Counted from the first letter of the stretch, positions 2,502 through 42,062 are shown. The stretch is DNA of 64,000 nt from an uncultured bacterium (GCA_965368975.1 CBDUPA010000001.1:704001-768000); one strand, 5' to 3'. Notes: generated by a model not told the origin, from the sequence alone. Program-made: numbers and translations.

Positions 2502-2834
2502 ATGCCACAAGACCGATCCGACCTGCTCCAAGGCACCCTCGATCTGCTCATTCTGCGCACCCTCCTGCCCGGTGCTCTGCACGGCTGGGCGATTTCGCAG
2601 CGCATTCAGCAGGTTTCGGACGAAGTGCTGCAGGTGCAGCAGGGGTCACTGTACCCATCGTTGCACCGCCTGGAGCGCAAGGGTTGGATCCAGTCCGAGT
2701 GGGGGGCGTCGGAGAACAACCGTCGCGCCAAGTTCTACAGTCTCACCGAGGAAGGCCGTGCCCGGCTGGAGGATGAGACGGAGAATTGGATGCGTTTGTC
2801 GGCGGCGGTGAGCCGGGTCTTGGAGTTGGCATGA
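2502..2834 (+). CDS. PadR family transcriptional regulator (acidobacterial type)
   Basis: [11 protein letters not shown]...HGWAI...[14 protein letters not shown]...[10 protein letters not shown] motifs; ATGA-coupled to the following permease. Confidence 0.92.
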
Positions 2835-24680: not shown

Positions 24681-27137
24681 ATGTTTCCCGACTTCCGTCA
24701 GGCCTTCCGCAAGCTCCGCCGCTCGCCCTTCTTCACTAGCATTGCCGTCCTGACCCTGGCCCTCGGCATTGGCGCCAACGCGGCGGTATTCAGTGTCGTC
24801 TACGGCGTGCTCCTCAAGCCGCTGCCCTTCGACGAGCCCGAGCGCCTGGTTGGCATTTGGTACGAGGCGCCTGGCTTGGGCTTCGAGCAGGTGAACCAGT
24901 CGCCGGCAACGTACTTCACGCACCGGGACGATACCGAGATGCTGGAAGATCTCGGCTTGTGGGACAACAGCCAGGTTTCGGTCACTGGGCTCGAGAAGCC
25001 GATGGAGATCGAGGCGATGTTGGTGACGGACGGCACGCTGCCGATCTTGCGCGTGCGACCGGAGCTCGGGCGCTTGTTCAGTGCCGAAGACGATCTGCCG
25101 GACGCGCCCGAGACGGTGATGCTGAGCCACGGCTTTTGGAAACAGCAGTTCGGTGGTGACGCGTCGGTGGTGGGGCAGACGCTGCGGATCGACGGCCGTC
25201 CGCGCGAGATCATCGGGGTGTTGCCCGCGGGATTCCGGGTCATCGACTTCGACGCGGCGGTGTATCTACCGATGGGTTTCGAGAAAGCACAGGCGCGCAT
25301 GGGCAACTTCAGCTACCAGGGACTTGGGCGGCTGGTGCCAGGAGCGACGCTGGCACAGCTCGAAGCCGAGATGAACCGCTTGATCCCGGTGATGACGGAT
25401 CGCTATCCGGGCGGCATCACGCTGAGCATGCTGCAGGAGGCGCGCTTCGCGGCCTACCCGCGCTCGCTCAAGCAGGATGTGGTCGGCGATGTCGGGTCGG
25501 CGCTGTGGGTCCTGCTCGGCACGGTCGGATTGGTGTTGCTGATCGCCTGCGCCAACGTCGCCAACCTTTTCTTGGTGCGCGCTGATGGCCGACAGCTAGA
25601 AGTAGCGGTACGCACGGCGATGGGTGCCAGCCGAATGTCGGTGGTGCGCTCGTTCCTGGCCGAGAGCGTGCTGTTGGGCCTTCTCGGTGGTATTGCCGGT
25701 CTGGCGCTGGCCTTTGCCGGACTGCGCTTGCTGGTGGCTCTCGGACCGCGCAGCTTGCCGCGACTGCAGGAGATCTCGATCGACCCGACCGTGATCTTGT
25801 TCACGGCTGGTGTCTCGCTGCTGGCGGGTGTCCTCTTTGGCTTGGTCCCGGGGCTGCGTAGCAGTGCTCTGGGCGGGCTCGCAGTGACTCTCAAAGAGGG
25901 AGGATATCGCGGCTCGGAGGGTCGCCAGCGGCGCCGCGCCCGTCACGTGCTGGTGGTCAGCCAGGTGGCGTTGGCTCTGGTGTTGCTGGTCGGCTCCGGC
26001 CTCATGATCCGCAGCTTCCAAGCGCTGCAGCAGGTCGACCCCGGCTTCCGCGACCCGGCCGACGTGCTGACGCTGCGCGTGTCGCTGCCACGTGCCGAGG
26101 TCGAGACGGTGGAGCAGGTGATCCAGACCTTCCAACAGATGTACCAGAACCTGGCAGCGATTCCCGGCGTCAGCGCGCTGGGAATGAGTAGCTCGATCAC
26201 CATGGACGGTTGGGACAACAACGACGCGCTGTACGTGGAGGACGCGCCGACACCCGAGGGACAGTTACCGCCGATCCGGCGCGACAAGCGGGTAGCGGGC
26301 GACTACGTGGCGACCATGGGCAACCGCCTGTTGGCCGGGCGGGCGATCGACTGGAACGACTCGCTCCGGCGCAACAAGGTCGTGATGCTCACTGAGGATC
26401 TGGCCACCACCTACTGGGACTCTCCCGCCGAGGCGATCGGCAAGCGGGTGAGTAATGACTCCAGCGGTGACTGGTACGAGGTCGTCGGCGTGGTGGGTGA
26501 TATCCGCGACAACGGTGTGTCTCAGCCAACGGTGCCCACGGTCTACTGGCCGATGGTGGTGGTGGATCCGCGGGACGGCGAGGTCAACGCGCGACGCGCG
26601 ATGGCCTTCGCGCTGCGCCACCAGCGTCCCGACGAAGCGGGCCTGGTACGCGACGTCCAGGACGTCGTGTGGTCGATCAATCCCAATCTGCCGCTGGCCA
26701 ACCTACAGGGGCTCGACGAGATTCTGGGGCGCTCGATGGCACGCACCTCGTTCGTCCTTGTGATGCTGGCGATCGCCGCGGTGGTGGCATTGCTGCTCGG
26801 CAGCGTCGGCATCTATGGTGTCACTTCGTACTCGGTGACACAGCGTACCCGCGAGATCGGCGTCCGGTTGGCGTTGGGCGCGGGGCGCGGCGACGTCAGC
26901 GGCATGGTTCTGCGCCAAGCCGCGACATTGGCGGCGATCGGTGTCGGCGTGGGGCTGGCAGCTGCGTTCGGGCTGACGCGGCTGATGACGTCTCTGTTGC
27001 ACGGCGTCGAAGCGGTCGATCCGCCGACCTACGTGGCCGTCGCGCTGGCGTTGGTTCTGTTCGCGCTGCTGGCCAGCTGGCTACCGGCGCGGCGAGCGGC
27101 GCGCACGGATCCTATGGTCGCCCTTCGCTGGGAGTAG
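24681..27137 (+). CDS. ABC permease, ADOP type
   Basis: [68 protein letters not shown]. Confidence 0.93.
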
Positions 27138-29421
27138 GATCGCTGGGCCTCTGGGTGGTAGCTAGCAGTTCCTCGACTTCGAGAACGTCCTGGTCTTCGG
27201 GCGGCCGGTGCCGGACCAGGACGTTCCGACTCTCTTGTAAGAGGACGCGCGCGCCGTCGATGTCCCCTTGCTCCAGCAGCAGAGCGCCGAGATCCTTGCG
27301 CGCCAGCGCCGTGTCCAGGTGATCGTCGCCCAACTCCGCGCGGCGGATCTCTAGTGCATCAATGTAGTGACGCCCCGCGGCCTGGAGTTGACCCCGCAGG
27401 TGGTGCAGGCCTCCGAGGCTGCTGAGGACCGCTGCCGCCTTGCGGCTGCGTTCGCCATAGATGTCGCGACGGATCGCGAGGGCTTGCAGCAGCAGTGGCT
27501 CGGCGACGTCCAGCTTGCCCTGGTGGATGAGTACGGTGCCCAGGCTGCGCAGGCTGGTGGCGACGTTGGCGTCATGCTCGCCGAACTGTGCCAGACGCTG
27601 CGTCAGAACCTCGCGGTAGATCGTCTCGGCCTCGTCGAAAGCGCCGCGTTTGAGCAGGATAGCCGCCAGGTTGCTCCGTGGCTTGGCCAGATCCCGGGTC
27701 AGGCCCAGCCGCTGGCGCATGGAAATGGCCTCGCGGAAACGGAGCTCGGCCAGGTCGAGTCGGCCGGTCCAGTAGTCGAGGTAGGCCAGATTGTTGAGCG
27801 CCGAGGCCAGATCCGGCTGGTCGCGGTCGCTCAGGGCTCGGTACTGGGCCACGGAGCTTTCGAACAGCTCTCGGGCCTCGTCGTACGCGCCGAGTCGGGC
27901 GTAGACCTCGCCCAGGCGCAACTGCAGCTTGGCGCGGGCTTCCGGGTCTTCGAGCAACTGGCGTTCTAGCCGCAAGCGCCCCTTGTCGACCAGCTCGCGC
28001 ACCGTCGGTTCGCGCCCGTTCGGCTCCTCCGTGCCGGGGCGATCCGGGGAGGCGGCCTGGAACAAGCTGACCAGGAAGTCGGTGACGCCTTCGGCCCGCT
28101 GCCGCGCTCGTTCGGTGTTGTCCAGCTGACGATCGAGCGCCACGGTGAAGGCGCTGGCCAGCACCAGCGCCAACAGCAGGCCGGCAGCGGGAAGACGGTG
28201 GCGGCGCAGAAAGCGGCTGGCGACGTAGAGGGGGCCGCCGGCGCGCGCCTCGACCGGCCGTAGCCGCAGGTGGCGGCGAAGGTCCGCGGCCAGCTGCTCG
28301 ATCGTGGCGTAGCGTTGCGACGGGTTTTCCGCGAGCGCTTTCAGGACGATGGCGTCGACATCGCCTGCCAGGGCCCGGCGCAGACCACGCACGGAACCGC
28401 GGCGCGAATCCGCCACCACCTCCGGCCGCAGCTGGCGGGTGCTGGCGTCGGAGTAGGTGAAAGTGAGGTGCCGGCTGGTGGCTCGGCTGGGCGGCACGAT
28501 GGGTTGGATTCCTGGCTGCGCTGGAGGAGTGTCGACCGGTGTCGTCTCGCCATCGGCGAGGGCGGCATGGTGGGGCAGCCGGCCGGTGAGCAAAAGGTAG
28601 AGGATGACGCCCAAGGAGTAGATATCACTGGTTGTCCCGATGGGCTCGTGCCGCCGCTGCTCCGGACTGGCGTAGTGCAACGTCATGGCGCTTTGGTGCG
28701 GATCGCCAGTGGCATCCGTGGTGTCCGTGCGCAGCAACTTTGCGATGCCAAAGTCGAGCAGCTTGGGCGTTCCGTGCGCATCCACCAGGATGTTACTGGG
28801 CTTGAGGTCGCGATGCACGATCAGGTTCTGGTGCGCCAGTTGCAGCGCTGAGCACACGGGCAACAGCAGTTCCAGGCGCTGACGGACACTGAGCCGGTGC
28901 TGGTCGCAGTAGTGGTCCAGCCGCTCGCCTTCGACGTACTCCATGGCGAAGTAGGGCACACCGTCGGCGGTCGTTCCGCCGTCCAGCAGGCGCGCGATGT
29001 TGGGATGCTCGAGGCGGGCCAGGATCTGACGCTCGACGTGGAAGCGGCGCAGCAACGACTCGCTGGCGCCACCACGCTGGACGAGCTTGAGCGCTACTTG
29101 CTGTTCGAACTCTTCCTGGCGCTCGGCCAGGAAGACGATGCCCATGCCGCCGCGTCCCAGGTTCTTGACCAGCTGATACGGACCGACTCGCTGGCCGAGC
29201 TCGAAGTCTTCCAGTTCCGGAGTCGGACGCAAGCCCGCCAGGACCGGTTGCTCGATGAAGTCGTCGAGCTGATCCTCGTAGGCCAGGAAGGACTCGACCT
29301 CGCGCAGGAGATCCGGATCCCCACCACACAGGTCGGCCAGCCAGCTGCGGCGATCTGGGTACGCTGGATCCATGGTCTGCTCGAGGATCCTCTGAATGTG
29401 TTGCCAGCGCTCGGGGCTCAC
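27112..29421 (-). CDS. Membrane Ser/Thr kinase with C-terminal TPR domain
   Basis: AGGAG then GTG at 29421; [30 protein letters not shown]; one TM; ASALNNLA-type TPRs. Confidence 0.92.
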
Positions 29422-29503
29422 GGCTGCTCTCCTGATTCTCGTGGTTCTTCCAGAGAAGCGCAGAAGCGCCACCAACCAGACCACGTCGCCGCCCGCCCGA
29501 AGT

Positions 29504-30097
29504 TCACGGACCGTCCAGGGCGCGCAGCAACCACAGGCGGGCCGAGCGCCAGGCGCGCTTGACGGTCATCGCTGAGATGTCGAGTGTCGCCGCGGTTTCC
29601 TCGATGGTCAGGCCGCCGAAGTAGCGCAGCTCGACGATGCGAGCTTGCCGTGGATCGACCTTGGCCAGCCCTCGCAGTGCCGTGTCCAGGGCTACCAGGT
29701 CGATGTCGATTTGTCCCAAGGCCGACGTCCAGGCGCCGGACGTCGGCGAGTCGAGCTGTTCGTCGAAGGGTAGCGTCGGGACGCCGCCACCTTTCTTCAG
29801 TGCCTTGCGCCTACGTGCGTGATCCACCAACACCCTGCGCATGATCTCGGCCATGCCGGCGAAGAACTGGGCACGGCTTTCCCAGTGCACGGACTGGCGA
29901 CTGGCTACGCGTAGATAGACCTCGTTGACCAGCGCTGTCGGCTGCAGGGTGTGTCCCGGATTCTCTTTGGACAGATGGATACGCGCCAGCCGGCGCAGGT
30001 CATCGAAAACCAATGGGATCAGTCGCTCGAGGGCTTCCGGGTCGCCATCGCTCCAAGCGTCGAGAAGCGCCGTGACGTCCCACTGAGGTTCAGGCAT
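29504..30097 (-). CDS. ECF sigma factor, TIGR02999/kinase-associated type
   Basis: VTALLDAWSDGD, HTLQPTALVNEVYL, PRQARIVELRYFGGLTIEETA, VKRAWRSARLWL. Confidence 0.92.
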   Translation of the reverse strand: MPEPQWDVTALLDAWSDGDPEALERLIPLVFDDLRRLARIHLSKENPGHTLQPTALVNEVYLRVASRQSVHWESRAQFFAGMAEIMRRVLVDHARRRKALKKGGGVPTLPFDEQLDSPTSGAWTSALGQIDIDLVALDTALRGLAKVDPRQARIVELRYFGGLTIEETAATLDISAMTVKRAWRSARLWLLRALDGP

Positions 30098-30383: not shown

Positions 30384-31442
30384 ATGTTTACATTCGCTCA
30401 GCAGTTCACTCTCTCATTACAACTTCCGAAGGGTGCTCGGTGGATCCGGTTGGTGTTGGCCGGCGCGCTACTCCTCGCGCCGGCGGTCAATGCTCAGCCT
30501 ACGTGCGACGCCTGGCCCGTGACGGTGGGTGAGACTGTGCGTCACGCCGGTGGCGGCGTCGGGGACAGCGCTTGCTTCCTTCTCGACGTGCCGCTGGAGA
30601 GCCTCTTGGCCGTCGATGCCTTGACGCCGGTCGACGGCGCCCGTGTGCGTCTGCACCTGCAGTCGGCTGCCGGGCACCGTCAGCTGCGGGCCAGCGGTGA
30701 CAGCCAGCTACAACTCGCGGCCGCGGGTCAGTACCGGCTGCGCGTCGAGGCCGAAGATCCCCGGAAGCCACTGCCCAGCTTCCGCTTGCTCGTCCGCGCT
30801 TTACCCTCGGTGTCTCCCGCTTCGCAGTTCATTCCGGCACCTTCCGGCGCTCACGGTGAGCTAGATACGGAACTCGAGATCGACCCGAATCTCTTGCTCT
30901 CGGGGTTGGACCTACCCAGCACGGGAACGGACGACGGGGAGCTGGACACCGAGCTGGAAATCGACCCCAACCTCGGGGAGTTGGACACCGAGCTGGAGAT
31001 CGACCCCAACCTGCTGCGCGTGGAGCTGACATCGACGCTGACATCCCTGCTGACGCGCCTGTGTGGCCAAGCCGAACTCGACGATCACGGTGACGACGTG
31101 CTGTGTGCCACGCCGCTGACGGACGGCGTCGAGGCGCACGGCGAGATCGCCAATGCGTACAGCGATGATCGCGATGTCTACCGCTTCCGAGTCGAGGAGC
31201 TGGCGACCGTAGCGTTGCAGGTGGCGGGGCAGGCGGAGTTCTGTGCTGACTTGGTCGACGCGGCCGGTCAGCACCTGGACGCGCGGTGGAGTCGGGACGC
31301 GGAGCGGCTGCGCGGCGTCGTCACGCTGGTTGCCGGTAGCTATGAGCTGCGTGTCGAGGGGTGCGGCGGGACGGGGGGGAACTATCGTGTTTCGCTAGAA
31401 GACCAAGAGACTCTTGGCGGCTCTGCCGTACCGGCTTTCTGA
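30384..31442 (+). CDS. Secreted protein with PPC-like beta domains flanking three GELDTELEIDPNL repeats
   Basis: AAGGAG then ATG; signal peptide ending AVNA; DDHGD..CATPL...GEI....DRDVYRF PPC-like domain. Confidence 0.78.
   Translation: MFTFAQQFTLSLQLPKGARWIRLVLAGALLLAPAVNAQPTCDAWPVTVGETVRHAGGGVGDSACFLLDVPLESLLAVDALTPVDGARVRLHLQSAAGHRQLRASGDSQLQLAAAGQYRLRVEAEDPRKPLPSFRLLVRALPSVSPASQFIPAPSGAHGELDTELEIDPNLLLSGLDLPSTGTDDGELDTELEIDPNLGELDTELEIDPNLLRVELTSTLTSLLTRLCGQAELDDHGDDVLCATPLTDGVEAHGEIANAYSDDRDVYRFRVEELATVALQVAGQAEFCADLVDAAGQHLDARWSRDAERLRGVVTLVAGSYELRVEGCGGTGGNYRVSLEDQETLGGSAVPAF
30855..31013 (+). repeat. Three 39-nt coding repeats (30855-30893, 30936-30974, 30975-31013) encoding an identical 13-mer
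   Basis: Direct reading: 9 synonymous and 0 non-synonymous differences between copies 1 and 2; 3 synonymous differences between copies 2 and 3. Confidence 0.95.
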
Positions 31443-31536: not shown

Positions 31537-33819
31537 TCAGAAGACGAGGATGGAGCGCAGTTTCGGATTTGCTGCCCGCAAGAAGGTGTAACCCACGCCC
31601 GCCGAGCCGAGCATCAAGCCGGGTACGGCGAAGCGCGGGGAGACCCCGGAGGGCCACTGGTTGTCTCCGGCGTACCGCTCGGCCAGGCAACGCAGTGCCC
31701 CCTCGGCCAGATGGCGGTAGCGAAGTTCACCGAGAACCTCCGCAGCCACCAATAGCGTTTCGACCAGGCCGCAGAGTCCATGGCACAGGGTCGTGTCCAG
31801 GTTGGGGCGTCTCAGCCGTGCGCGCAGCGTCTCGGCGGCCGTGGTAACTCCGGCACGGGCCGCAGGCAGATAGTACTCGGCCCCTTCGGGGTTGAGCTGC
31901 AAGGCGCGGAGCCGTGCCAGCGCGATTCCCGGTGCACCGTGGCACCAGGCAACCCTGTACCGAGGTGGAGTGGACTCCCTATTGGCTTCCGGGGAGGGTA
32001 CTCCTGGGCTGCGCAAGTCGGGCCAGTTGCCGACAGCGGCACTGAACTGTCGATCTTCGTAGGCGAAAGCTCCCCGCGCTCCTTCGAGGAAGCGTATCTC
32101 ACCGGTTTCGCGGTAGAGGTGCAGCAGGGCGAGCCCGACACCGGCATTGCCGTGGGAAAGCCCGAGCTGTGCTGGTCCGTCCTCGTCGTGAACGGCTGCA
32201 TAGCGGCCAGGCCAGATCCAGCACCCGTCTGCGGTCTCCGCACTCTCGCACAGCTGATCGCCCAGGGCGAGCGCAGCGCGCCGCAGGCGCTTGAAACCAG
32301 TGGCGTTATAGAGCTCCAGGAGCATTGGAATCGTGCCGCTGTCTCCGCTGATGAAGTCCACTGGTCGGTCTGCTTCTGGTGCGATGGCCTCTTCGAGGCT
32401 AAAAGCATCCAAGTGCTGATCGACCTGTGCAGTGAGGTTGTCGTCCCCGAGTCGGTTTGCACAGTGCCGAGTTGCCCAGAGATGTCCGGCGAGCCCGCCA
32501 AACGGACTCAGATCCTGAGCGCCTGGCTCGGCTCGTTCTGCCTGCCAGAGCGTCTGTTGGAGCAGGCCTAGCAAAGTATCTCGAAGCCGTTCCTCGCGGG
32601 TCGCCAGGAAGAGTTCCGCAAGGAAGAGCGCAACGCCGGAAGTGCCATCGTGCATTTCGGCCGGAAGTGTGCAGACCGCGGCATATCCTCCCCAACCATC
32701 GAGCTTCGAGGGAGAGCAACGGCTGAGCCAATTGCAGCGTCCTTGATACCAGTTGGCTTCTTGGCAAAGGTCGAGACCAATGCCGAGGGCACACTGAGAG
32801 AGGCTTGCTGGAGAGGGCTTTCTGTGGGGTTCGTGTCTACGAGATGCGCGGCGGATTCCTGGTAAGGGGTAGCAAGCCTGAGATCGTGGCGCCCGGTACG
32901 GCTTTGCCGGGTCCAGGCCGGCAGTGCGGAAAGCGGTATCAACGGTTTCTTCCTTGGGCTGGCCAGTTGTGAAGGCCTCTACGAGAGCTGAGGCGATCAA
33001 CTCGCATCGGTGTTCGCCGAAGCTCTCACCGCCGAGTGGCCCTTCGGCGACAGCCAGTCCGGGGGCCAGGGGCAAGGTGAAGCAGGGAGTTGCTTCATGA
33101 AGGCCATGTTCCACAGCCCGATAAAGTTCAGCGATAGCAAGAGCCACCGTGGCCCAACAGCCGGACTGCAGGTACAGAACGCCGGCATCGGCGCGTCCAT
33201 AAGCCGAGGGATCATCGGGTACCTTCGCCTTGAAGCTAATGCCGAGCGGGTCGAGTGTCTGGCAGAGCTGCTCTAGCCAGGTCGTGGCGCAGTCGGGATT
33301 CAGGTTCCAGTACAGGCGAAGTAGCCAGGGTGATTCTGAACTCGGTGAATCGGTGGTACCCAGAATGGAGTAGAAACCTGGGAGCCTGTTTGGGGCATCG
33401 CCTGGGATTCGAACCGAGATGGCGTCTCCTGGCTTCAGAGTTTCCTCGACATGACGGACATCGCTCAAAGGGCTGTGGAAGCGAATACCACCACGTTCAA
33501 CGATGCACCGCGCATCCGGGAGGATTTCTCTCAGTCTCCATCCGCTCTGCCAGCAGAACCTTCCTTCCTCGACCCGGAGAAGGTGCTGCCGAAAGAGTGC
33601 GGCCGAGTTGATCTCAGCAAGCGGGGCCATGACCGGAAGCTGCCGTGACCGCATGTAGACATGTTGGTAGAGGTGCCGAGTCAGAGATTCGACCAAGGAA
33701 CTGGACGGGGAACGGTGCAAGGTCTCGCCACACAGTCGGTAGCTGTTGCTGTCGATCAGGTCGATGGTTTCGACCGTGGTGCGAAGGTCGGTCGACCACT
33801 GTCGAGGGCCGAGAAACAT
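31537..33819 (-). CDS. HopA1-like lyase (LanY-like) fused to LanC-like lanthionine cyclase
   Basis: N-half: LRLYWNL, Y.RADAGVLY, PLAPGLAVAE.P..GESFGEHRC (HopA1-like). C-half: DG.SGVALFL, D.ISG..G, GLSHG..G, WPDLR, WCHGAPG, LCHG..G, GLMLG.AGVG (LanC with Zn ligands). Confidence 0.85.
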   Translation of the reverse strand: MFLGPRQWSTDLRTTVETIDLIDSNSYRLCGETLHRSPSSSLVESLTRHLYQHVYMRSRQLPVMAPLAEINSAALFRQHLLRVEEGRFCWQSGWRLREILPDARCIVERGGIRFHSPLSDVRHVEETLKPGDAISVRIPGDAPNRLPGFYSILGTTDSPSSESPWLLRLYWNLNPDCATTWLEQLCQTLDPLGISFKAKVPDDPSAYGRADAGVLYLQSGCWATVALAIAELYRAVEHGLHEATPCFTLPLAPGLAVAEGPLGGESFGEHRCELIASALVEAFTTGQPKEETVDTAFRTAGLDPAKPYRAPRSQACYPLPGIRRASRRHEPHRKPSPASLSQCALGIGLDLCQEANWYQGRCNWLSRCSPSKLDGWGGYAAVCTLPAEMHDGTSGVALFLAELFLATREERLRDTLLGLLQQTLWQAERAEPGAQDLSPFGGLAGHLWATRHCANRLGDDNLTAQVDQHLDAFSLEEAIAPEADRPVDFISGDSGTIPMLLELYNATGFKRLRRAALALGDQLCESAETADGCWIWPGRYAAVHDEDGPAQLGLSHGNAGVGLALLHLYRETGEIRFLEGARGAFAYEDRQFSAAVGNWPDLRSPGVPSPEANRESTPPRYRVAWCHGAPGIALARLRALQLNPEGAEYYLPAARAGVTTAAETLRARLRRPNLDTTLCHGLCGLVETLLVAAEVLGELRYRHLAEGALRCLAERYAGDNQWPSGVSPRFAVPGLMLGSAGVGYTFLRAANPKLRSILVF

Positions 33820-33823
33820 GAAG

Positions 33824-34954
33824 TCAGGCAGGGGGCGAGTCCTCCGCTGAGACAGGGGATTCCAGATCGTAGAGGTGGTGCGCCGCGTCGTCGGGATCCT
33901 TTAAGATATTCACTCCTAGCTGCGAGAGGAGAACCATGAGCGTGGTGTAGCCGGAGGCCCTGCGGCCGACCTCCTGTGCTGTTCCGAGTAACTGCACGCC
34001 AGAAAAGGCGACGGACCGCTGCAGGAGGTTTGCCGTTGCCTCCGTGGGTAACAGGGCGGCTTCCAGGTAGGCGTGCCAGAAGCCTTGGATCCATGGACGC
34101 ACCATTCTGAGTGGCATGCGAGCCGCCTGAGAGCGCTCAGCCGACTCGATGTCGGCTTCCATGGGCATGCTGGTGACCCAGAACCGCAAGAACTCGCGAA
34201 GGACGGCTCCGAGATCCCAAGCTGGATCCCCGAAGCGGGCCATCTCCCAATCCACGAGTCGCAGGGGCTGTTCGGTGTCGGCTATCCACAAGACGTTGTC
34301 GGATCGAATATCGCCGTGGATCAGCGTTTCATCCTGCCATCTGGATCGCCAGATCTCGAGAGGCTCCAGTAGCTCCACTTCTCCTTGAATGATGCGCAAC
34401 AAGTCCAACTGAGCTGGTCTCAGCTCGTTGCGGCGGGCCAGGTTTACTTTGGGAAACCAGAAGAGTCCGGGCGCACCCATGGGCAGCTTGGGTACGAAGC
34501 CGCCGAGGTCGAGCCTGCGGCGCCTCAGACCCCGGTGGACTCGGCCCAGGCTGCGGCCCAGGGCCTTGGCGATGGAGAGGCCTTGGGCAGACTCTTCGGT
34601 GCACGCCTGCAACCACGGTCGTGCGTTCCTGATCAGCTCTGCTGCCAGAACAGGATCAGGCGAGTCAGTCTTCTTTATCGCTGGTAACAGGGGCAGGAGG
34701 TCTCGGTGACCTGGAACTGCACCAAGGCATTGGTGCAGCCTTGCCTCGTACGCCAAAGGCGGGCCTTGCTCCGGTCTGCCAGAAGGTTTCTTGATCAGGT
34801 AGCCAGGTTGATTGGGAAACTCGACTCTCAAGCTTTGATTGAGCCGGAGAATCCAGGTGACACCCAGGCCATCGATCAGGTCTTTTTCGCGCAAGAAAGG
34901 ACACAACTCGAGGAGTTCTTTGCCCAGTTCTGACGGAGCTTCGAGGGGCTTCAC
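33824..34954 (-). CDS. Aminoglycoside-phosphotransferase-fold kinase (LanK-like)
   Basis: LIHGDIRSDNVL and LVDWEMARFGDPAWDLG; 4 nt from the HopA1-LanC gene. Confidence 0.85.
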   Translation of the reverse strand: MKPLEAPSELGKELLELCPFLREKDLIDGLGVTWILRLNQSLRVEFPNQPGYLIKKPSGRPEQGPPLAYEARLHQCLGAVPGHRDLLPLLPAIKKTDSPDPVLAAELIRNARPWLQACTEESAQGLSIAKALGRSLGRVHRGLRRRRLDLGGFVPKLPMGAPGLFWFPKVNLARRNELRPAQLDLLRIIQGEVELLEPLEIWRSRWQDETLIHGDIRSDNVLWIADTEQPLRLVDWEMARFGDPAWDLGAVLREFLRFWVTSMPMEADIESAERSQAARMPLRMVRPWIQGFWHAYLEAALLPTEATANLLQRSVAFSGVQLLGTAQEVGRRASGYTTLMVLLSQLGVNILKDPDDAAHHLYDLESPVSAEDSPPA

Positions 34955-34975
34955 GCTTGCGGCCCGTTCCAGGTT

Positions 34976-35179
34976 TCAGGTGGCCGGCGAAGACGGCGAG
35001 CACCACTGAGGGTGACTATTTTGAAGCGTGCGTAAGGGGGGAAACCACACACAGTCTGGTGACGGCGAAGATCTGTCGTCTTCGGACTCGACTTCGGCTT
35101 GGGCCAAATAGGTGTCCGTAAGGTGACCCTTCAAGAAGTGGCTCGCGCGAGGGGACTGGCGGTGCTGTTTTTTGCGCAT
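34976..35179 (-). CDS. Putative RiPP (lanthipeptide) precursor peptide, 67 aa
   Basis: AGGAGA-acgt-ATG; fills the gap between the receptor kinase (9 nt) and the LanK-like gene (21 nt); C-terminal 31 aa contain 7 Ser, 2 Thr and 2 Cys. Confidence 0.65.
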   Translation of the reverse strand: MRKKQHRQSPRASHFLKGHLTDTYLAQAEVESEDDRSSPSPDCVWFPPLRTLQNSHPQWCSPSSPAT

Positions 35180-35188
35180 ACGTTCTCC

Positions 35189-38100
35189 TCATAGGTTTCT
35201 GCATCCAACTGCTGGTGATCCCGCCGAGCGTACATATGTGGCGAGCTCATGATCGTCTACCAGAGTTTGGAACTGTTCGTCGGACCATTCGGCGTCGAGA
35301 AGCCGATGCACAATGGGTAACGCTTCTTCAATTCGCCCCAGCTCCAGCAGGGACTGAGCTCGAGTATCGAGAATCCGGCACTTCTCGGCTGGCAGTGCTT
35401 CCGCTAACTCGAGTGCTTTCTGCCAGCTGTTGCGAGCCAGATCCTCTTCGTCGCGTTGCTTCTGAATGCGACCAAGTTCGAGGTAGGTTCGAGCTGTCGC
35501 TTCCGTGTTTTGTGGATTCTCAGGCATATCCTGGAGAAGACGCAGGACCGTTCTTCCTTCTAGGAGAGCCAAATCCCATTTGCTCGCACTCTTATAGTGA
35601 TCCTGGAGAGCCGCATGCGACACAACTAGCCATAGTTGCAGGTGGGTGTAGGTCGGATGTTCATCTGCCACTTGTTTGAAGGTTTCACTGGCGCGGTGCA
35701 GGTAGGCCAGAGCTATCTCGGGCTGGTCCTCAAGTGCCGTGGCAAGGCCAACCCAGGTCTGTGCCAACGCTACAGGCCAAGTGTCCCGCAATGGGTCGAG
35801 TACGATCAGTTGTTGATAGAGGCGCTCGGCCTCTCGTAGTCTGTGGAGCGCGCTCGGCTTGTCAGCTGTAGCCAGATAGAGGTTTCCGAGATCGAGTTCG
35901 GTTATGGCCTGTGCTCTGAGCCAGGTGAGCTGTGTTGGATTGCCTTCCATCAGATTTCCGAGCCTTGTTCGTAACCTTTCAAGAGCACGTATTCCTTGTT
36001 GGAAATCGGACCGAGCCTGGTGGAGTGTTCCGAATAGTTGCAAGGTATCAACAAGCAGAGTTTCGGTTCGCCAGTTCGAAGTTGGCTCGAGTACAAGGTC
36101 TTCTGCAATCTGGAGCGCCTCCTCAGCATACTCCAAGCCCTGCTCGAAGTCTCCGATTCGGCAGTACAAGTGAGCGGTCTCCTGAAGATTCTGGCCTAGC
36201 AACAGGCGCCACTCGGTCGGCGCATCCTCCCTTCCTGCCAGTTGCCGCGCCAGCAGGCGAGAAGAGGCGAGACTGTCGAGTCCTTCCTGGGTTTTTTCCT
36301 GTCGAATCAGAACGGACGCAAGTCTAAGTCTTGCCCGGCTCAGGGCTCCTTGGACTCGGGCTTGGCTCGGATCTTTCTCATGTAGGGCCGCTAGGATGCG
36401 GACGGCTTTCTCATGTGCAGCTTGAGCCTGGTTGACATCCAGCCGCTCTTCTAAGACCCATCCGATGTTGAGATACGTGAGGGCGCGGCGAAGACTGTCC
36501 GCGGAGCTGAAGTCCGCCTGGGTTTGCGAGAAATGCTCCAAAGCTCTTTGAGCCACTTGATCCAGCAGGTCCAGGCGCCCCAGAGGTTCCAGATTTTCCT
36601 GCAGGTCGAAGAGCATGAAGTCGATCAACCCTTCCGCCTGCCGCCGCTGCTCTCCTTCGCGCTCCTTTGCCTGCATGGCCTGGAGCGCGAGGACAACGAC
36701 CACCACCAGGAAGATCGACGCCGTGACGGCAACTGCCTTGAGTCGTCGTCGGCGCCGGACCGCTTGCTGCGCAGCCCGCCTCGCTGCCCTTTCCGTTGCC
36801 CGTTCCGCCCGCCGTTGTTCCAGAGTGTACAGCTTCTCGGCAGCAATCAAGCCACTCGCCGGCCGCCGCTCCGGCCGGCCATCGACGAGCGTGCCAATGT
36901 CCTCGACCAGCAACTCCTCCTCGACATCCCGCTCCCAGCCGGAGGCCAAGGGCCGCTCGAAATCAGCCGCGACCAGTTGATAGAGCAGCACACCGAACGA
37001 GTAGAGATCCGCCTGGATCGTGGCCGGTCGGCCGGCAAGTAGCTCCGGTGCCATGTAGCCGAAGGTTCCCGCTCCGGAGTCCGTGGTCGGGGTTGCCGTC
37101 GCCGTGAAGCCGAGGGCAGTGAAATCTTGCCCTGCCAGCTGTTCTCGATCCGTCAGCAGTCCGATGCCAAAGTCGGTCAGGCGCGCGCGCGGGCGGCCAT
37201 CGCGGTCGCTGGTGATCAAGACGTTCTCGGGCTTGATGTCCTTGTGCAGCACGCCGACCGAGTGCGCCGCCGCCAGCGCCTCGGCGACTTCGGCGGCCAG
37301 TTCCAGGCGCACCTCGAGCGGTACTTGACTCAGGCCTCCTTGCTGCTCGGCCCAGCGCACCAGGCTGCCGCCCTCGGTGTACTCGGCCTCGACGAAGAAG
37401 GGAGCGCTGTCGAAATTCCAGTCCAGGATGCGCGCGATGTCGTCGCGCTGGCCCAGGGCTTCCTTGAGCAGGCGGAAGAGCGTCACCTCGCGCTTGAGCG
37501 CGCGCAGGCGCTCGGCCTCGAAGCAGAACTTGAAGACGCGCGCCTCGCCGGCTTTGTGGCGGGCCAGCCAGACCTCGCCGAAGCCACCTTCGCCGACGCG
37601 CTCTTCCAGCTTCCAGTGCGGTCGACCGGGAATGGGTTGACCACCGGCGGGGCGCCAGCCGAGCATGCGTTCTTCGCTGACGGACAGGGCCCGCCGGGCA
37701 TCGGTGCGTTCGGAGGGAGGTCGTAGGGCCGACAGCCCGTCGAGACCGACCTCGAACACGTCCAGAGGGGTTTCTCGGCCCCTGAGCAGGTAGCTGCCGT
37801 GCGCCAGCCAGCGAAGACTGCTCTTGCCGCCGTCTTCCGTGCCGTCGCGGGAGTCCGGATGGGCACGGCGCGCGAGGTCGAAGGCGGTACGGCTGAGCAG
37901 GATCTGGTTGCCAGCGGCGAGGTGTAAGAGCTGGCAGGCGGTTCCCTTCTCGCTACCTTCGACTTCCACCTCCGGTGCACCTTGCTGCCTCTCGGCAGAG
38001 GAGGGACGGTGCACCAGAACTTCCGCCGTGTGGATGGCGGCGCGGATCGGCAACTCGACCGCGAAGGTGGAGGCCACTTCGAGGATGGCCCGCTGGGTGG

Positions 38101-39361
38101 ACAAGGCGCAGGCGACAGCATCGGCGGGGCGTTCGAAGACGGCGAGCAGGCTGTCGGCTTTCTCGGCCACCGAGCCGCCGTACAGGGACACCAGGTCGCG
38201 CAGGCGCCGGTCGTACCGGCTCAGGAGGCTGGCCGCGGTGCCGTCGCCGTGGCGCTGGGGCAGGGCGGCGCGGTGGAGCAGTTCGACGTGGAGCAAGGTG
38301 CGAACGGCTGGAGTGCCGGTAGGAGGGGAGGGGAACCATTCGCCGGTCGCCTGCTCGCTCGTGGCGGGGTTGCCGTCGAGTTCGCCGTGGCTGGCGGAAG
38401 CCCGCCGCGTACCTGACGGCCGTGGCAGGGCAGAGGTGTCGGGCTGGAGGAGCACGCCAGGGCCAGTGCCGGCATCCGTGCCAGGGCCAGGGCCGCTTCG
38501 CAGTCGTTCCAGCGAAGCGGCCACCAGGCTGGCGTTGGCGGGGCGCTGGTGCGGGTCCTTGGCCAGCAGGGCCTCGACTAGCTGCAGCAGGTCGGCTGGC
38601 AGCCGCGGCTGCAATTGAGCTAGGGAAGTCGGAGGTTCTGCAGTGATGCGGCACAGGGTGTCGAGCAAGTTCGTCCCCTGGAAGGGGGGGCGACCGCTGA
38701 GCATCTGGTAGAGCAGGCTGCCGAGGGCGAAGAGGTCCGATCGGTGGTCGAGCGGACGGCCGCTGGCCTGCTCGGGAGACATTGCATGGACGGTGCCGAC
38801 CAGGGCTCCCGCTTCGGTCAGGGTCTGGGAGCCGATAGGGTCCTGGAGGAGCGGGTCTTGGGACGACGTGTCCCTGCGCCAGAGGCAGTGCACCAGGCCG
38901 AAGTCGAGGATCTTGGCATGTCCGGCGGCGGTCAGGCGGACGTTCTCGGGCTTCAGGTCTCGGTGGACGAAGCCGCGAGCGTGCGCCTCGGCCAGACCTT
39001 GGGCGATCTCCGTACCGAGACGTAACGTCTGGTCGAGGTCGAGGGGGCCGTCTGTCAGCAGATCGGCCAGGCTCGGCCCCTCGACGTACTCCATGACCAG
39101 GCAATCGCCGTCGTCGGTGGAAACGATGTCGAAGATCTGGACGATCGCCGGATGGTTGAGGCCCGCCACGGCCCGGGCTTCGCGCCGGAAGCGCTCACGT
39201 CGCCGCGGATCGACTTCCAGGTCTTCGCGGATGCGCTTGATGGCGACTTTCCGGTGCAGGCGCTCATCGCGCGCCAGGAAGACCTCTCCCATCCCTCCGA
39301 CGCCGAGCCTGGACTCGACGCGGTAGGAACCAAAGCTGAGTTCGACTGATGCTGTGGGCAT
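35189..39361 (-). CDS. Receptor kinase: Ser/Thr kinase, degenerate class III cyclase-like domain, second kinase, TM, TPR-like domain
   Basis: Kinase 1: GVGGMGEV/HRDLKPEN/DFG. Cyclase-like: GD..A.LL..YDR..RDL...GG...D..L.VFERP.DAV..AL...IR.AIH..EV. Kinase 2: GEGGFGEV/HKDIKPEN/DFG/GYMAPE. TM: VAVTASIFLVVVVVLAL. Confidence 0.88.
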   Translation of the reverse strand: MPTASVELSFGSYRVESRLGVGGMGEVFLARDERLHRKVAIKRIREDLEVDPRRRERFRREARAVAGLNHPAIVQIFDIVSTDDGDCLVMEYVEGPSLADLLTDGPLDLDQTLRLGTEIAQGLAEAHARGFVHRDLKPENVRLTAAGHAKILDFGLVHCLWRRDTSSQDPLLQDPIGSQTLTEAGALVGTVHAMSPEQASGRPLDHRSDLFALGSLLYQMLSGRPPFQGTNLLDTLCRITAEPPTSLAQLQPRLPADLLQLVEALLAKDPHQRPANASLVAASLERLRSGPGPGTDAGTGPGVLLQPDTSALPRPSGTRRASASHGELDGNPATSEQATGEWFPSPPTGTPAVRTLLHVELLHRAALPQRHGDGTAASLLSRYDRRLRDLVSLYGGSVAEKADSLLAVFERPADAVACALSTQRAILEVASTFAVELPIRAAIHTAEVLVHRPSSAERQQGAPEVEVEGSEKGTACQLLHLAAGNQILLSRTAFDLARRAHPDSRDGTEDGGKSSLRWLAHGSYLLRGRETPLDVFEVGLDGLSALRPPSERTDARRALSVSEERMLGWRPAGGQPIPGRPHWKLEERVGEGGFGEVWLARHKAGEARVFKFCFEAERLRALKREVTLFRLLKEALGQRDDIARILDWNFDSAPFFVEAEYTEGGSLVRWAEQQGGLSQVPLEVRLELAAEVAEALAAAHSVGVLHKDIKPENVLITSDRDGRPRARLTDFGIGLLTDREQLAGQDFTALGFTATATPTTDSGAGTFGYMAPELLAGRPATIQADLYSFGVLLYQLVAADFERPLASGWERDVEEELLVEDIGTLVDGRPERRPASGLIAAEKLYTLEQRRAERATERAARRAAQQAVRRRRRLKAVAVTASIFLVVVVVLALQAMQAKEREGEQRRQAEGLIDFMLFDLQENLEPLGRLDLLDQVAQRALEHFSQTQADFSSADSLRRALTYLNIGWVLEERLDVNQAQAAHEKAVRILAALHEKDPSQARVQGALSRARLRLASVLIRQEKTQEGLDSLASSRLLARQLAGREDAPTEWRLLLGQNLQETAHLYCRIGDFEQGLEYAEEALQIAEDLVLEPTSNWRTETLLVDTLQLFGTLHQARSDFQQGIRALERLRTRLGNLMEGNPTQLTWLRAQAITELDLGNLYLATADKPSALHRLREAERLYQQLIVLDPLRDTWPVALAQTWVGLATALEDQPEIALAYLHRASETFKQVADEHPTYTHLQLWLVVSHAALQDHYKSASKWDLALLEGRTVLRLLQDMPENPQNTEATARTYLELGRIQKQRDEEDLARNSWQKALELAEALPAEKCRILDTRAQSLLELGRIEEALPIVHRLLDAEWSDEQFQTLVDDHELATYVRSAGSPAVGCRNL

Positions 39362-39391: not shown

Positions 39392-40048
39392 TCAACTCGT
39401 GACTTGCTTGTTTCTTTCCGGCTTGCCTTTCTCCAGAGTGTGCAGCAGCCAGAGACGCGCGCTGCGCCACTCTCGCTTGACAGTGCGCGGTGAGATCTCG
39501 AGGGTATGTGCGGTCTCTTCGACGGTGAGACCAGCAAAGTAGCGCAGTTCGACGATACGGCTCTGCCGAGGAGCCAGTTGTGTCAGCTCGTGCAGGGCTC
39601 GGTCGAGATCGAGCAAGTCGACGGTGCGGTGCCGATGGCCCCCTGCGCTCCAAGCCTCATCGATCGGAATGATGGTGCAGTCGCCGCCATGCCGCATCGC
39701 TTGGTTGCGGCGGGCGTGGTTGATCAGGAGCCGCCGCATGGTGGTGCCCATGTAGGCGAAGAATTGCGCTCGGCACTGCCAGCTCAGCTCGCGCCCCCCC
39801 GTCAAGCGCAGATACGCCTCGTTCACCAGGGCGGTCGGCTGTAGCGTGTGGCCCCGACGCTGACGCTGTAGGTGGAAGGCGGCGAGTTGACGCAGGTCGT
39901 TGAGCACCAGTGGAAATACGTGCGCCAAGGCAGAAGCGTCCCCCCGAGCCCAGGCGTCGAGAAGCTGGGTGACCTCTCCGGACGGTGGCTCGGTGAAGGC
40001 GCGGCCTTCTTCGTTCGGCGGAGACTCCTGAGGAATGCTACCTACCAT
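39392..40048 (-). CDS. ECF sigma factor, TIGR02999/kinase-associated type
   Basis: VTQLLDAWARGD, HTLQPTALVNEAYL, PRQSRIVELRYFAGLTVEETA, VKREWRSARLWL. Confidence 0.92.
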   Translation of the reverse strand: MVGSIPQESPPNEEGRAFTEPPSGEVTQLLDAWARGDASALAHVFPLVLNDLRQLAAFHLQRQRRGHTLQPTALVNEAYLRLTGGRELSWQCRAQFFAYMGTTMRRLLINHARRNQAMRHGGDCTIIPIDEAWSAGGHRHRTVDLLDLDRALHELTQLAPRQSRIVELRYFAGLTVEETAHTLEISPRTVKREWRSARLWLLHTLEKGKPERNKQVTS

Positions 40049-40154: not shown

Positions 40155-42062
40155 CTACTCGTCGAGCTGATCCTTGATACCGAGCCTGCGGATCATGCGG
40201 TGCAGCGAATTGACGTGGATGCCCAGCCGGTCGGCGGTGACGCCGTAGTCGCCGCCGGCTGCGCGGTAGGCGTCGAGGATCAGCTTGCGCTTGAACTCGA
40301 CCAGGGCGGCCTGGAACTCGGACGGCACCTCGGCCGTGCTCTCGCGCACTTCTTCCGGCAGATCCTCGGGTTCGACGACGTCGGTTTCGCCGAGCACCAA
40401 GGCGCGCTCGATGACGTTGCCCAGCTCGCGCACGTTGCCGGGCCAGTCGTAGGCTTGCAGGCAGCGCTCTGCGGCCTGCGAGACGGTGACACCGAGGCGG
40501 CCGAGGCGACGGCCCTGGACGGCCAGGAAGTGACTGCACAGGAGCGGGATGTCGTCGCGACGCTGGCGCAGGGGTGGTGGTTCCAGGGTGATCACCTTGA
40601 GGCGGTAGTAGAGGTCCTCGCGGAACTCGCCGGCACGGATGGCTGCTTCCAGGTCGCGGTTGGTGGCGGCGACGATGCGCACGTCGACGTCGATCGGCCG
40701 CGTCCCACCGACGCGCTCGAATTGCCGCTCCTGCACCACGCGCAGCAGCTTGGCCTGGATCGGCGGTGGAATCTCACCCACCTCGTCGAGAAAGAGAGTG
40801 CCGCCGCCGGCGGTCTCGAACTTGCCGGGCTTGCGCGCCACGGCGCCGGTGAAGGCACCTTTCTCGTGCCCGAAGAGTTCGCTTTCGAGCAGCGTCTCAG
40901 ACAGGGTGGCGCAGTTCACCGCCACGAAAGGACCGGCGGAGCGCGCGCTCGAACGGTGAATGGCCTGGGCGGTGAGTTCCTTGCCGGTCCCGCTCTCGCC
41001 GCGAAGCAACACGGTGGTGTCGGAGCGCGCGACCTTGCCGATGAGGTCGAGCAGCCGCCGCATGGCGGCGCTTGCGCCGATCAAGTCGTGCTGCAGCTGC
41101 TGCGCTTGCAGGCGCCGGTTCTCGGCTTCCAGCCGCTGTAGCTGCAGGCTGTTGGCGAGCGCCAGGGAGGCCACGGCTGACAAACCCTCGAGCAGGTCGA
41201 GGTGGTGAGCGTCGAAGGCACCGGCGACGTGAGTCTCGCCGGTCAGCACGGCCAGCACGGACTCGCCCGCGGGATCGAGGAGGGGAGCCGCGACCCGTGT
41301 GCCGAGGGTGGAGTCGGTGAGTTGCGTGCAGCGCTCGTGCACGGCTTTTTCGACGATTGTCTCCACGAGGGTCCGATTTGCCGCGATTCCATCGGCGGCG
41401 ATTCCATCCCGGCTGGCTGGGCCGGGCTCCACCTGCCGCGAACGCTGCGCCAGCACTTGCGGCTGCTCGTCACCAGGCTGCCACCAGAGCACCTGGGTGC
41501 GCTGTGCGGGTAGGGCCTCGAGCAGTGCGGCGACCACGCGCTCGCCGCACTGCTCCGGCAGCAGTGGCCCCTGCAGTTCGGTGCTCCAGCGCAGCAGGGT
41601 CTGCAGGTCGCGGGCGATCCGCGCCTGGACGGGGAGTTCGGCGTCCAGGTGAGCCGGATCGAGCAGCAAGATCTCGGTGGCTCTGCGCGCGAAGGTACTG
41701 CGGCCGGTGGTCCTTCTGCTGCCGGCAAGTCTTGCGCTCTCGCGTGGCTCGATGCCGCGCGTGTCGGTATCGTTGAGCAGGAAGAGCAAGACACTGCCGC
41801 CGAGAGTCAGCAGGTCGCTGTGTACCAGCTGGTGTTGTCGCACCGGCCGGCCATTGACGAAGACCCCGTGCCGGCTTCCGAGGTCCTGGAGGGTATAGCC
41901 GCCATCGCTGCCCGGCAGCAACTCGCAGTGTCGGCGCGAGATCTCCAGGCTCTCCAGGCGCAAATCACAGTCAGCACTGCGACCGATCGTGAACGGCTTC
42001 GTGAGCAGCGGAAAGGTCTGACCCGCGGCGGGGCCACTGATAGCTACCAGGCGTGGTTTCAA
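40155..42062 (-). CDS. FHA-GAF sigma54-dependent enhancer-binding protein
   Basis: FHA: IGR...SRRH...DLGSRHG.FVNG. AAA+: [39 protein letters not shown]-terminal HTH. Confidence 0.92.

Follow-up and report, generated by a model that had tools for sequence, protein, structure and literature searches.

Is the gene of a receptor kinase a mosaic of two parts with separate histories, and did the peptide genes that follow it travel with its sensor? These questions are raised by a lanthipeptide operon of an uncultured bacterium, located in a stretch of 64,000 nucleotides (nt; GCA_965368975.1, CBDUPA010000001.1:704001-768000) that we call the window. All coordinates are those of the window unless a contig or locus is named, and locus (L), protein (P) and contig (C) identifiers are labels of this analysis. 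The operon lies on the minus strand and consists of five genes arranged head to tail: an extracytoplasmic function (ECF) sigma factor, the receptor kinase, a precursor peptide, LanK and a LanY-LanC (lyase-cyclase) fusion, separated by gaps of 30, 9, 21 and 4 nt. An earlier examination of this DNA, hereafter the sequence-only reading, had proposed that the tetratricopeptide repeat (TPR) sensor part of the receptor and the lanthipeptide genes form a single exchanged cassette.

The explanation that we favour, to which we assign a probability of roughly 0.6, is that the receptor gene is a mosaic, that its stretch of separate history runs on through the lanthipeptide genes, that recombination was at its origin and that the operon would serve in signalling. 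That the sensor has a history separate from that of the kinase part appears highly probable, while it seems an even bet whether the lanthipeptide genes are part of the same unit of exchange or co-divergence.

A break within the receptor gene

The compositional break in the receptor is confirmed. The spot counts on which it had been proposed are exact (42/60 G+C at 37501-37560 and 30/60 at 35461-35520), and the G+C content of 300-nt segments amounts to 0.64-0.74 over 36550-39249 and to 0.52-0.59 over 35050-36549. At third codon positions, the G+C content (GC3) drops from 0.81 over codons 1-921 to 0.56 over codons 922-1390, the TPR sensor part having the lowest GC3 of the locus. The maximum-likelihood change point follows codon 921, some 25 codons beyond the membrane segment, and its support interval (Table 1) lies inside the 36.3-36.8 kb region where the sequence-only reading had predicted a step. 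The log-likelihood ratio of this change point is 46.2, whereas 300 within-gene codon shuffles reach at most 7.8.

Amino-acid composition is not the cause of the step. With the same amino acids and the codon use of the genome, a GC3 of 0.805 is expected for the TPR part, which has 0.551 (z = -14.0); codons 1-921 have 0.806 for an expected 0.798 (z = +0.6) and are thus like the rest of the genome. Genome-wide, the median GC3 is 0.805 and the 5th percentile 0.64 (2635 mechanically called open reading frames, ORFs, of at least 300 aa), and just 53 of 4039 450-codon segments have a GC3 of 0.563 or less. Two controls are available: the TPR part of the neighbouring kinase gene (27112-29484) shows no drop, with a GC3 of 0.819, and in a receptor paralogue of the same genome (contig 6) the sensor-minus-kinase difference is merely -0.031. 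The receptor's within-gene step ranks 25th among 1374 genes and 10th among 945 once 120 codons are trimmed; in eight of the nine steps then ranked higher the low part is N-terminal in mechanically called ORFs, a pattern that over-extended starts mimic. The sole other C-terminal drop among the 25 strongest steps is found in a gene of contig C10 (223759-227095, minus strand), whose 1111-aa product carries a P-loop (GDPGSGKS) in the N-terminal half. The GC3 of this gene falls from 0.79-0.80 to 0.48 after codon 823, and it may represent another swapped C-terminal module.

A contig joining two strains or organisms inside the conserved kinase gene would also create a compositional step. The host genome (7.13 Mb, 65.4% G+C, about 88 Ser/Thr-kinase matches) is in 59 contigs and looks metagenome-derived, and the break adjoins a highly conserved stretch, where assemblers can switch strain. 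The reading frame is nevertheless intact across the junction, and an independently assembled 299-nt contig of a public sediment-metagenome run spans 36390-36688 with zero differences, other pieces of that run being 100% identical on both sides; the junction is therefore not an assembly join. The run holds 0.19 of the sampled words, and its short identical pieces indicate the same organism, possibly the source sample itself, rather than a relative. Given that possible common source, the agreement rules out an error of the assembler, though not all mixtures of strains, and we consider an artefact extremely improbable.

Protein comparison gives a signal that is independent of GC3 and falls at the same place. 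One close database relative of the receptor, P0094 (1355 aa), is 87% identical to it over residues 1-944 and 33% identical thereafter. The support interval of this change point covers residues 942-945 (36527-36535) and lies inside that of the GC3 step. The closest lyase-cyclase, P0002, is 53% identical to the 760-aa protein of the window, with no sharp step. P0002 and P0094 each come from a contig of 8515 nt, an equality from which alone we infer that they share a contig. In this one relative, sensor and lyase-cyclase would thus both have diverged far more than the kinase part, its peptide and LanK lying outside the comparison. A closer relative was sought in 41 and then 201 genomes of the order, where none was found (best values: kinase module 59%, TPR part 29-32%, lyase-cyclase 35%), and in JGI metagenomes, where none was found either (best values 57-68%, plus one 45-residue piece at 80%). 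The TPR part itself matches 18 database proteins at E <= 1e-3, the third best being 27% identical.

Probable sensor replacement across the kinase family

The kinase module is widespread: it yielded 2237 matches, including more than 2000 relatives at 50-64% identity whose source names indicate Acidobacteriota/Thermoanaerobaculia. Members of this family (P0111-P0228, loci L097-L127) share a layout of kinase, unnamed middle domain, kinase, membrane segment and TPR repeats. To compare both parts of these receptors, we aligned 94 proteins of at least 1250 aa from the 120 listed among the 2237 matches, and computed module identity over window residues 350-944 and sensor identity from residue 945 onward. 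Module identity reached at least 0.80 in 51 pairs, which are non-independent and in which orthologues and paralogues are indistinguishable.

Fourteen of these close pairs are congruent, 25 are discordant and 12 fall between. Congruent pairs combine module identities of 0.86-0.92 with sensor identities of 0.82-0.87 (e.g., 0.92/0.87, 0.91/0.87 and 0.89/0.87), so differences in rate alone do not give the drop seen in discordant pairs such as 0.97/0.51, 0.94/0.50 and 0.85/0.33. With 0.92/0.37, the pair formed by the window's receptor ranks with the most discordant ones. The change points of the discordant group map to window-numbered residues 852, 914, 945, 977-980 and 1012-1023; as they vary, the breakpoints are not tied to a single domain border. 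Taken with these shifting breakpoints, the congruent pairs speak for a recurrent replacement of the sensor module in this family rather than for a merely fast clock. A separate observation concerns locus L099 of genome G002, where an ECF sigma factor gene (4483-5040, minus strand) whose product is 53% identical to that of the window is located some 3 kb downstream, and not upstream, from a receptor kinase gene of the family.

The lanthipeptide genes

The receptor stop codon is followed by 9 nt, GGAGAACGT, and then by the ATG of the precursor gene, precisely the spacing given in the sequence-only reading. A Shine-Dalgarno-like GGAG lies within these nucleotides, 5 nt before the ATG. The 32 C-terminal residues of the precursor include 7 Ser, 2 Thr and 2 Cys, and its HFLKGHLTDTYLAQAE fits a leader motif found upstream of LanK genes in other phyla, such as DFLGGDLSNQYLATAK in L025. 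Expressed as F[LFV]xGx[ILVM], the motif has 21 matches upstream of LanK, in 21 of 61 other loci, versus 3.0 expected from the six frames of the loci, although the P value of this excess is inflated because the pattern was picked after looking. On these grounds, the 67-aa precursor is regarded as real. No homologue was called by phmmer among 1.84 billion representatives, one weak match to a 1171-aa protein being taken as spurious. An overlapping 62-aa ORF (35016-35204) lacks the leader motif. Nine loci (L019, L020, L024, L025, L031, L033, L036, L061 and L086) share a longer leader, G-T/S-x-V-W-V-x-R-x-A-x-L ... F-L-x-G-x-I, located about 200-450 nt upstream of LanK; the peptide of the window carries the second part alone.

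The genes downstream of the precursor code for the tailoring enzymes. In 64 of 80 loci, drawn from many phyla, the lyase-cyclase gene is immediately preceded by that of a LanK homologue, and about 58 lyase-cyclase fusions are listed, again from many phyla. The fusion protein matches PF17914 (HopA1-like, E 2.2e-38) and PF05147 (LanC, E 4.6e-52). In its LanC part, C626/H627, C679/H680 and H556, which we take to be zinc ligands as in NisC, are each at least 90% conserved among 23 aligned homologues. Two other regions of the host genome resemble these enzymes. A stretch of contig C11 (154130-156028, minus strand) shows weaker LanK-like, HopA1-like and LanC-like matches (26-43% identity), one of which contains a TGA, and could be the decayed remnant of a second cluster. 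Contig C18 has a further, separate LanC-like match (2591-3742).

Judged from its domains, the peptide gene set is predicted to be of the class V (Vb-like) lanthipeptide type, with lyase and cyclase fused. Dehydration in class V relies on an APH-like kinase and a HopA1-like lyase (CaoK/CaoY, PMC9486802), and class Vb has a dedicated LanC cyclase (PMC11186320). The operon resembles these pathways by its LanK, its HopA1-like lyase, its LanC cyclase and a precursor gene beside the enzyme genes. It differs from them in that lyase and cyclase form one 760-aa protein, in that LanD, LanX and reductase genes are absent, and in its host, probably a member of the Acidobacteriota, whereas the class V pathways compared are from actinomycetes. 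In the portions of the class V literature available to us (PMC9486802, PMC11186320), no earlier description of a lyase-cyclase fusion was met.

One unit or two adjoining regions

Past the receptor gene, GC3 is 0.66-0.67 in the precursor gene (z = -3.0), 0.70 in the LanK gene (z = -6.0) and 0.66 in the lyase-cyclase gene (z = -7.8/-6.5), and 0.77-0.84 in the genes flanking the operon. The low-GC3 tract is unbroken from the receptor break into the last gene of the operon. The sequence-only reading had seen the less biased composition continue by eye through the peptide and enzyme genes; it does so, at 0.66-0.70, but more weakly than in the TPR part. In 31 other GC-rich loci, the GC3 of LanK and lyase-cyclase genes matches that of their flanks (mean difference -0.007, sd 0.056); in the window these genes lie about 0.13 below the kinase part.

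Gene neighbourhoods were also inspected. A Ser/Thr kinase gene is present in the flanks examined of 13 of 80 lyase-cyclase loci, and five of the 80 (L017, L018, L027, L030 and L044) have a same-strand kinase gene upstream of a precursor-LanK-lyase-cyclase set. The C-terminal domain of this upstream kinase is FGE-sulfatase in L027, L030 and L044 and WD40 in L018; in L063, a precursor-like ORF begins 17 nt after the end of a TPR protein gene that is truncated by the contig end. A crude hydrophobic-run scan, too rough to use, gave a membrane segment in no planctomycete kinase and one in L017. Since the density of kinases in these genomes has no baseline, the neighbourhood of kinase and peptide pathway is an observation rather than a test.

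Several findings weigh against a sensor and lanthipeptide genes that moved as one. The TPR part (GC3 0.565, 252/446) and the peptide and enzyme genes (0.675, 812/1203) differ from each other (Fisher P = 5e-5), the former being significantly lower, and one block derived from one donor is therefore not established. Among 16 family members from other genomes, 15 have a sensor GC3 below their kinase GC3 (mean difference -0.093, range +0.007 to -0.288), hence part of the step seen here is a family habit and not the trace of a single event. The sequence-only reading had suggested comparing the genes downstream of homologous kinases, and the outcome went against its cassette: neither LanK nor lyase-cyclase was found near the other family members whose DNA was examined (L105-L127, L097-L103), and the gene following the receptor is on the opposite strand in five of six inspected cases. 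As sensors of the family vary with no such genes nearby, sensor replacement needs no linked peptide gene. In addition, the operon contains no exporter or leader peptidase gene, no flanking repeats or mobile-element traces were found marking the ends of the candidate cassette, and the identity comparison covers one close relative and two proteins.

Some of these findings would fit a history with no exchange at all, in which sensor and lanthipeptide genes evolved in place through fast protein change under weaker synonymous pressure, possibly because divergent stretches recombine less and lose GC-biased conversion. The family-wide lower GC3 of sensors agrees with it, and so does the difficulty of aligning the family's TPR sensors at all (18 matches versus 2237 for the kinase module). 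However, at a module identity of about 0.9 the congruent pairs keep TPR identities of 0.82-0.87, compared with 0.33-0.37 here, and change points differ among pairs. A GC3 step of 0.25 within about 60 codons is hard to reach by drift alone, as is a lyase-cyclase at 53% identity beside a kinase part at 87%, and the agreement of LanK and lyase-cyclase with their flanks in the 31 other loci also speaks against it. We regard evolution in place as improbable.

Alternatively, two independent variable regions may adjoin, the TPR part having been replaced alone and the lanthipeptide genes having been acquired or having diverged separately; kinase and sigma factor could then control the operon on another cue, and the peptide could be an antimicrobial or some other product. 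The unequal GC3 of the two parts, the lack of an exporter and the many discordant sensors with no LanK or lyase-cyclase near the members examined would all be expected, and known kinase-dependent ECF sigma factors answer outside stresses, namely polymyxin (PknT) and an amoeba (PknS) (PMC8999054). Conversely, given the continuous tract and the 9-nt spacing, two separate events would need to abut exactly. Both parts are strongly diverged in one relative in which the kinase part is not, and the order of receptor then precursor recurs in other phyla. Two independent regions seem to us a rather unlikely account.

The one-cassette claim of the sequence-only reading consequently stands in part: the break is at the predicted place and sensor and lyase-cyclase have both diverged (33% and 53%, versus 87% for the kinase part), but composition is not uniform along the proposed cassette and sensors elsewhere in the family can change on their own.

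Proposed origin and mechanism

We return to the mosaic receptor gene. The receptor would consist of a conserved cytoplasmic signalling module, with two Hanks-type kinase domains, and a TPR sensor module of separate history, the two meeting at about 36.53 kb, and the stretch of separate history would continue through the precursor, LanK and LanY-LanC genes for a total of about 5 kb. The mosaic would most likely have arisen when diverged versions of this operon underwent homologous recombination, one crossover being placed in the conserved juxtamembrane coding segment; events of this type would be recurrent among these kinases.

In the signalling scheme that we propose, a signal reaching the periplasmic TPR domain would activate the kinases, which would phosphorylate the co-encoded ECF sigma factor by analogy with EcfP/PknT (PMC8999054). 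The phosphorylated sigma factor would then direct transcription of the operon, including its class V-type lanthipeptide genes. LanK would phosphorylate Ser and Thr residues of the precursor, a function taken from that of CaoK (PMC9486802). The HopA1-like domain would eliminate the phosphate and the LanC domain would close up to two thioether rings on the two Cys of the precursor.

The leading candidate for the TPR signal is the exported lanthipeptide of the operon itself, which would make the locus a pherotype-like autoinduction cassette. We advance this speculative ligand tentatively. A complex prediction of the TPR part (residues 897-1390) with the unmodified 67-aa precursor scored 0.02, for a mark of 0.34, the fold of the partner being uncertain, and this score weighs neither for nor against binding; the real ligand would be the modified peptide. 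Taken to its full extent, the scheme would describe, in a diderm bacterium of soil or sediment, a quorum-sensing-like peptide system in which an exported class V lanthipeptide is read by a TPR domain, a kinase acts on an ECF sigma factor and cassettes exchanged behind the membrane segment create pherotypes, within an Acidobacteriota kinase-kinase-membrane segment-TPR family that diversifies by sensor swapping. As a whole this broader picture is doubtful.

If the peptide were the ligand, it would give class V lanthipeptides a signalling role and would name the type of ligand for one of many orphan TPR receptor kinases, in a phylum for which we know of almost no signalling chemistry. Regardless of the ligand, about half of the close pairs join a conserved kinase module to an unrelated sensor, at varying breakpoints, which suggests that these receptors evolve by module exchange. 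Discordant receptors are natural chimeras and could guide receptor engineering.

Operon layout and neighbouring genes

The features of the operon are collected in Table 1.

Table 1. Features of the lanthipeptide operon and its receptor gene (window coordinates; E values are those of Pfam matches).
Feature	Position	Strand	Description
ECF sigma factor	39392..40048	-	218 aa; PF07638 Sigma70_ECF, E 6.6e-52; first operon gene
Receptor, whole gene	35189..39361	-	1390 aa; two Pkinase domains, one membrane segment, C-terminal TPR repeats
Receptor conserved part, aa 1-944	36530..39361	-	Kinase 1 (aa 13-280), middle domain, kinase 2, membrane segment, juxtamembrane helix
Single membrane-spanning segment	36674..36742	-	Receptor aa 874-896; RRRRR on N-side
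Break (GC3 change-point support interval)	36428..36613	-	Codons 916-978
TPR sensor part, aa 945-1390 and stop codon	35189..36529	-	TPR_12, E 2.4e-13, and other TPR families
Precursor peptide (LanA)	34976..35179	-	67 aa; leader motif HFLKGHLTDTYLAQAE
LanK, APH-like kinase	33824..34954	-	376 aa; APH, E 2.3e-13
LanY-LanC fusion	31537..33819	-	760 aa; HopA1-like lyase aa 143-309, LanC cyclase aa 386-755

The Pkinase family matches the receptor in two stretches (E 4.7e-77), and the domain between them is unnamed by Pfam. Because of the arginine run on the N-terminal side of the membrane segment, the TPR part is predicted to lie outside the cytoplasm, in the periplasm, an orientation deduced from the positive-inside rule and the ATP requirement of the kinases.

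No terminator-like site was found on the coding strand of the operon, and promoter and terminator scans did not exceed chance level. No anti-sigma gene lies in the 30 nt between the end of the sigma factor gene and the receptor start. The sigma factor gene has a GC3 of 0.73-0.74 (z = -2.6 relative to the amino-acid-matched expectation). Canonical ECF sigma factors have acidic residues in region 2.2 (DAED motif). By eye and without alignment, region 2.2 of the factor encoded at 39392-40048 reads HTLQPTALVNEAYL, with Thr at the acidic positions, and GHTLQPTALVNE is seen at the expected place in both sigma factors of the window (likewise by eye, without a reference ECF43 alignment).

The second of these factors (29504-30097) is paired with a Ser/Thr kinase-TPR gene (27112-29484); both share the strand of the operon and lie 1.4 kb downstream of it. 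This pair (27112-30097) has normal GC3 in both halves, no peptide genes and no anti-sigma gene between sigma factor and kinase. Convergent with the operon, a gene at 30384-31442 (plus strand) codes for a 352-aa protein with a signal-peptide-like start and three copies of the repeat GELDTELEIDPNL, encoded by DNA repeat D1 (30854-31028); its weak Pfam match to CsgH (E 0.0056) is below the cutoff of that family. Directly upstream of the sigma factor gene of the operon lies an FHA-GAF-sigma54 activator gene (40155-42062, minus strand). FHA domains read phospho-threonine, so this activator might be another target of the kinases.

Comparison with known systems

A limited literature search found no paper that ties a lanthipeptide to an ECF sigma factor, a Ser/Thr kinase and a TPR domain. 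Each component nonetheless has counterparts. RRNPP-type TPR receptors are cytoplasmic, recognize an imported peptide and exert their effect directly on DNA or a partner; in the window, TPR repeats follow the single membrane segment of a kinase and are predicted to be periplasmic. Nisin is an outside signal for a kinase that switches on its own operon, but NisRK is a two-component system of Firmicutes, in contrast to the Hanks-type kinase and ECF sigma factor found here, and we know of no exchange of sensor and peptide cassettes of this kind for it.

In EcfP/PknT and EcfK/PknS, phosphorylation activates an ECF sigma factor whose gene adjoins that of a Ser/Thr kinase (PMC8999054). The window shares with this ECF43 type a sigma factor gene beside the gene of a membrane Ser/Thr kinase, with no anti-sigma gene between them. 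It differs by its two kinase domains, its TPR sensor and the peptide pathway in the operon.

Covariation of sensor, peptide and tailoring enzyme is the hallmark of pherotypes such as those of agr and ComQXPA, known from Gram-positive histidine-kinase circuits; the window would present the same pattern in a different chassis, made of a Hanks-type kinase, an ECF sigma factor and a class V lanthipeptide. In agr groups, a hypervariable block extends over processing enzyme, peptide and the receptor's sensor half and gives way abruptly to conserved flanks. In agr the host is Gram-positive, the receptor a histidine kinase and the peptide a thiolactone; for the window, one allele pair is known. In ComQXPA of Bacillus subtilis, modifying enzyme, peptide and sensor part vary strongly between strains while the cytoplasmic kinase part is conserved, and the genes are adjacent on one strand (PMC4008528). 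Its receptor is a histidine kinase with a multi-helix membrane sensor, its partner is a response regulator and its peptide is isoprenylated; the window has a Hanks-type double kinase with a predicted periplasmic TPR sensor, an ECF sigma factor and predicted lanthionine formation. The sensor is moreover at the 3' end of the receptor gene and is followed by the peptide gene, and peptide signalling is putative. With two Pkinase domains and an ECF sigma factor gene as partner in place of a histidine kinase together with a response regulator, the system is not a member of the ComQXPA or agr family. By analogy, however, the pattern of the window is closest to that of ComQXPA and agr.

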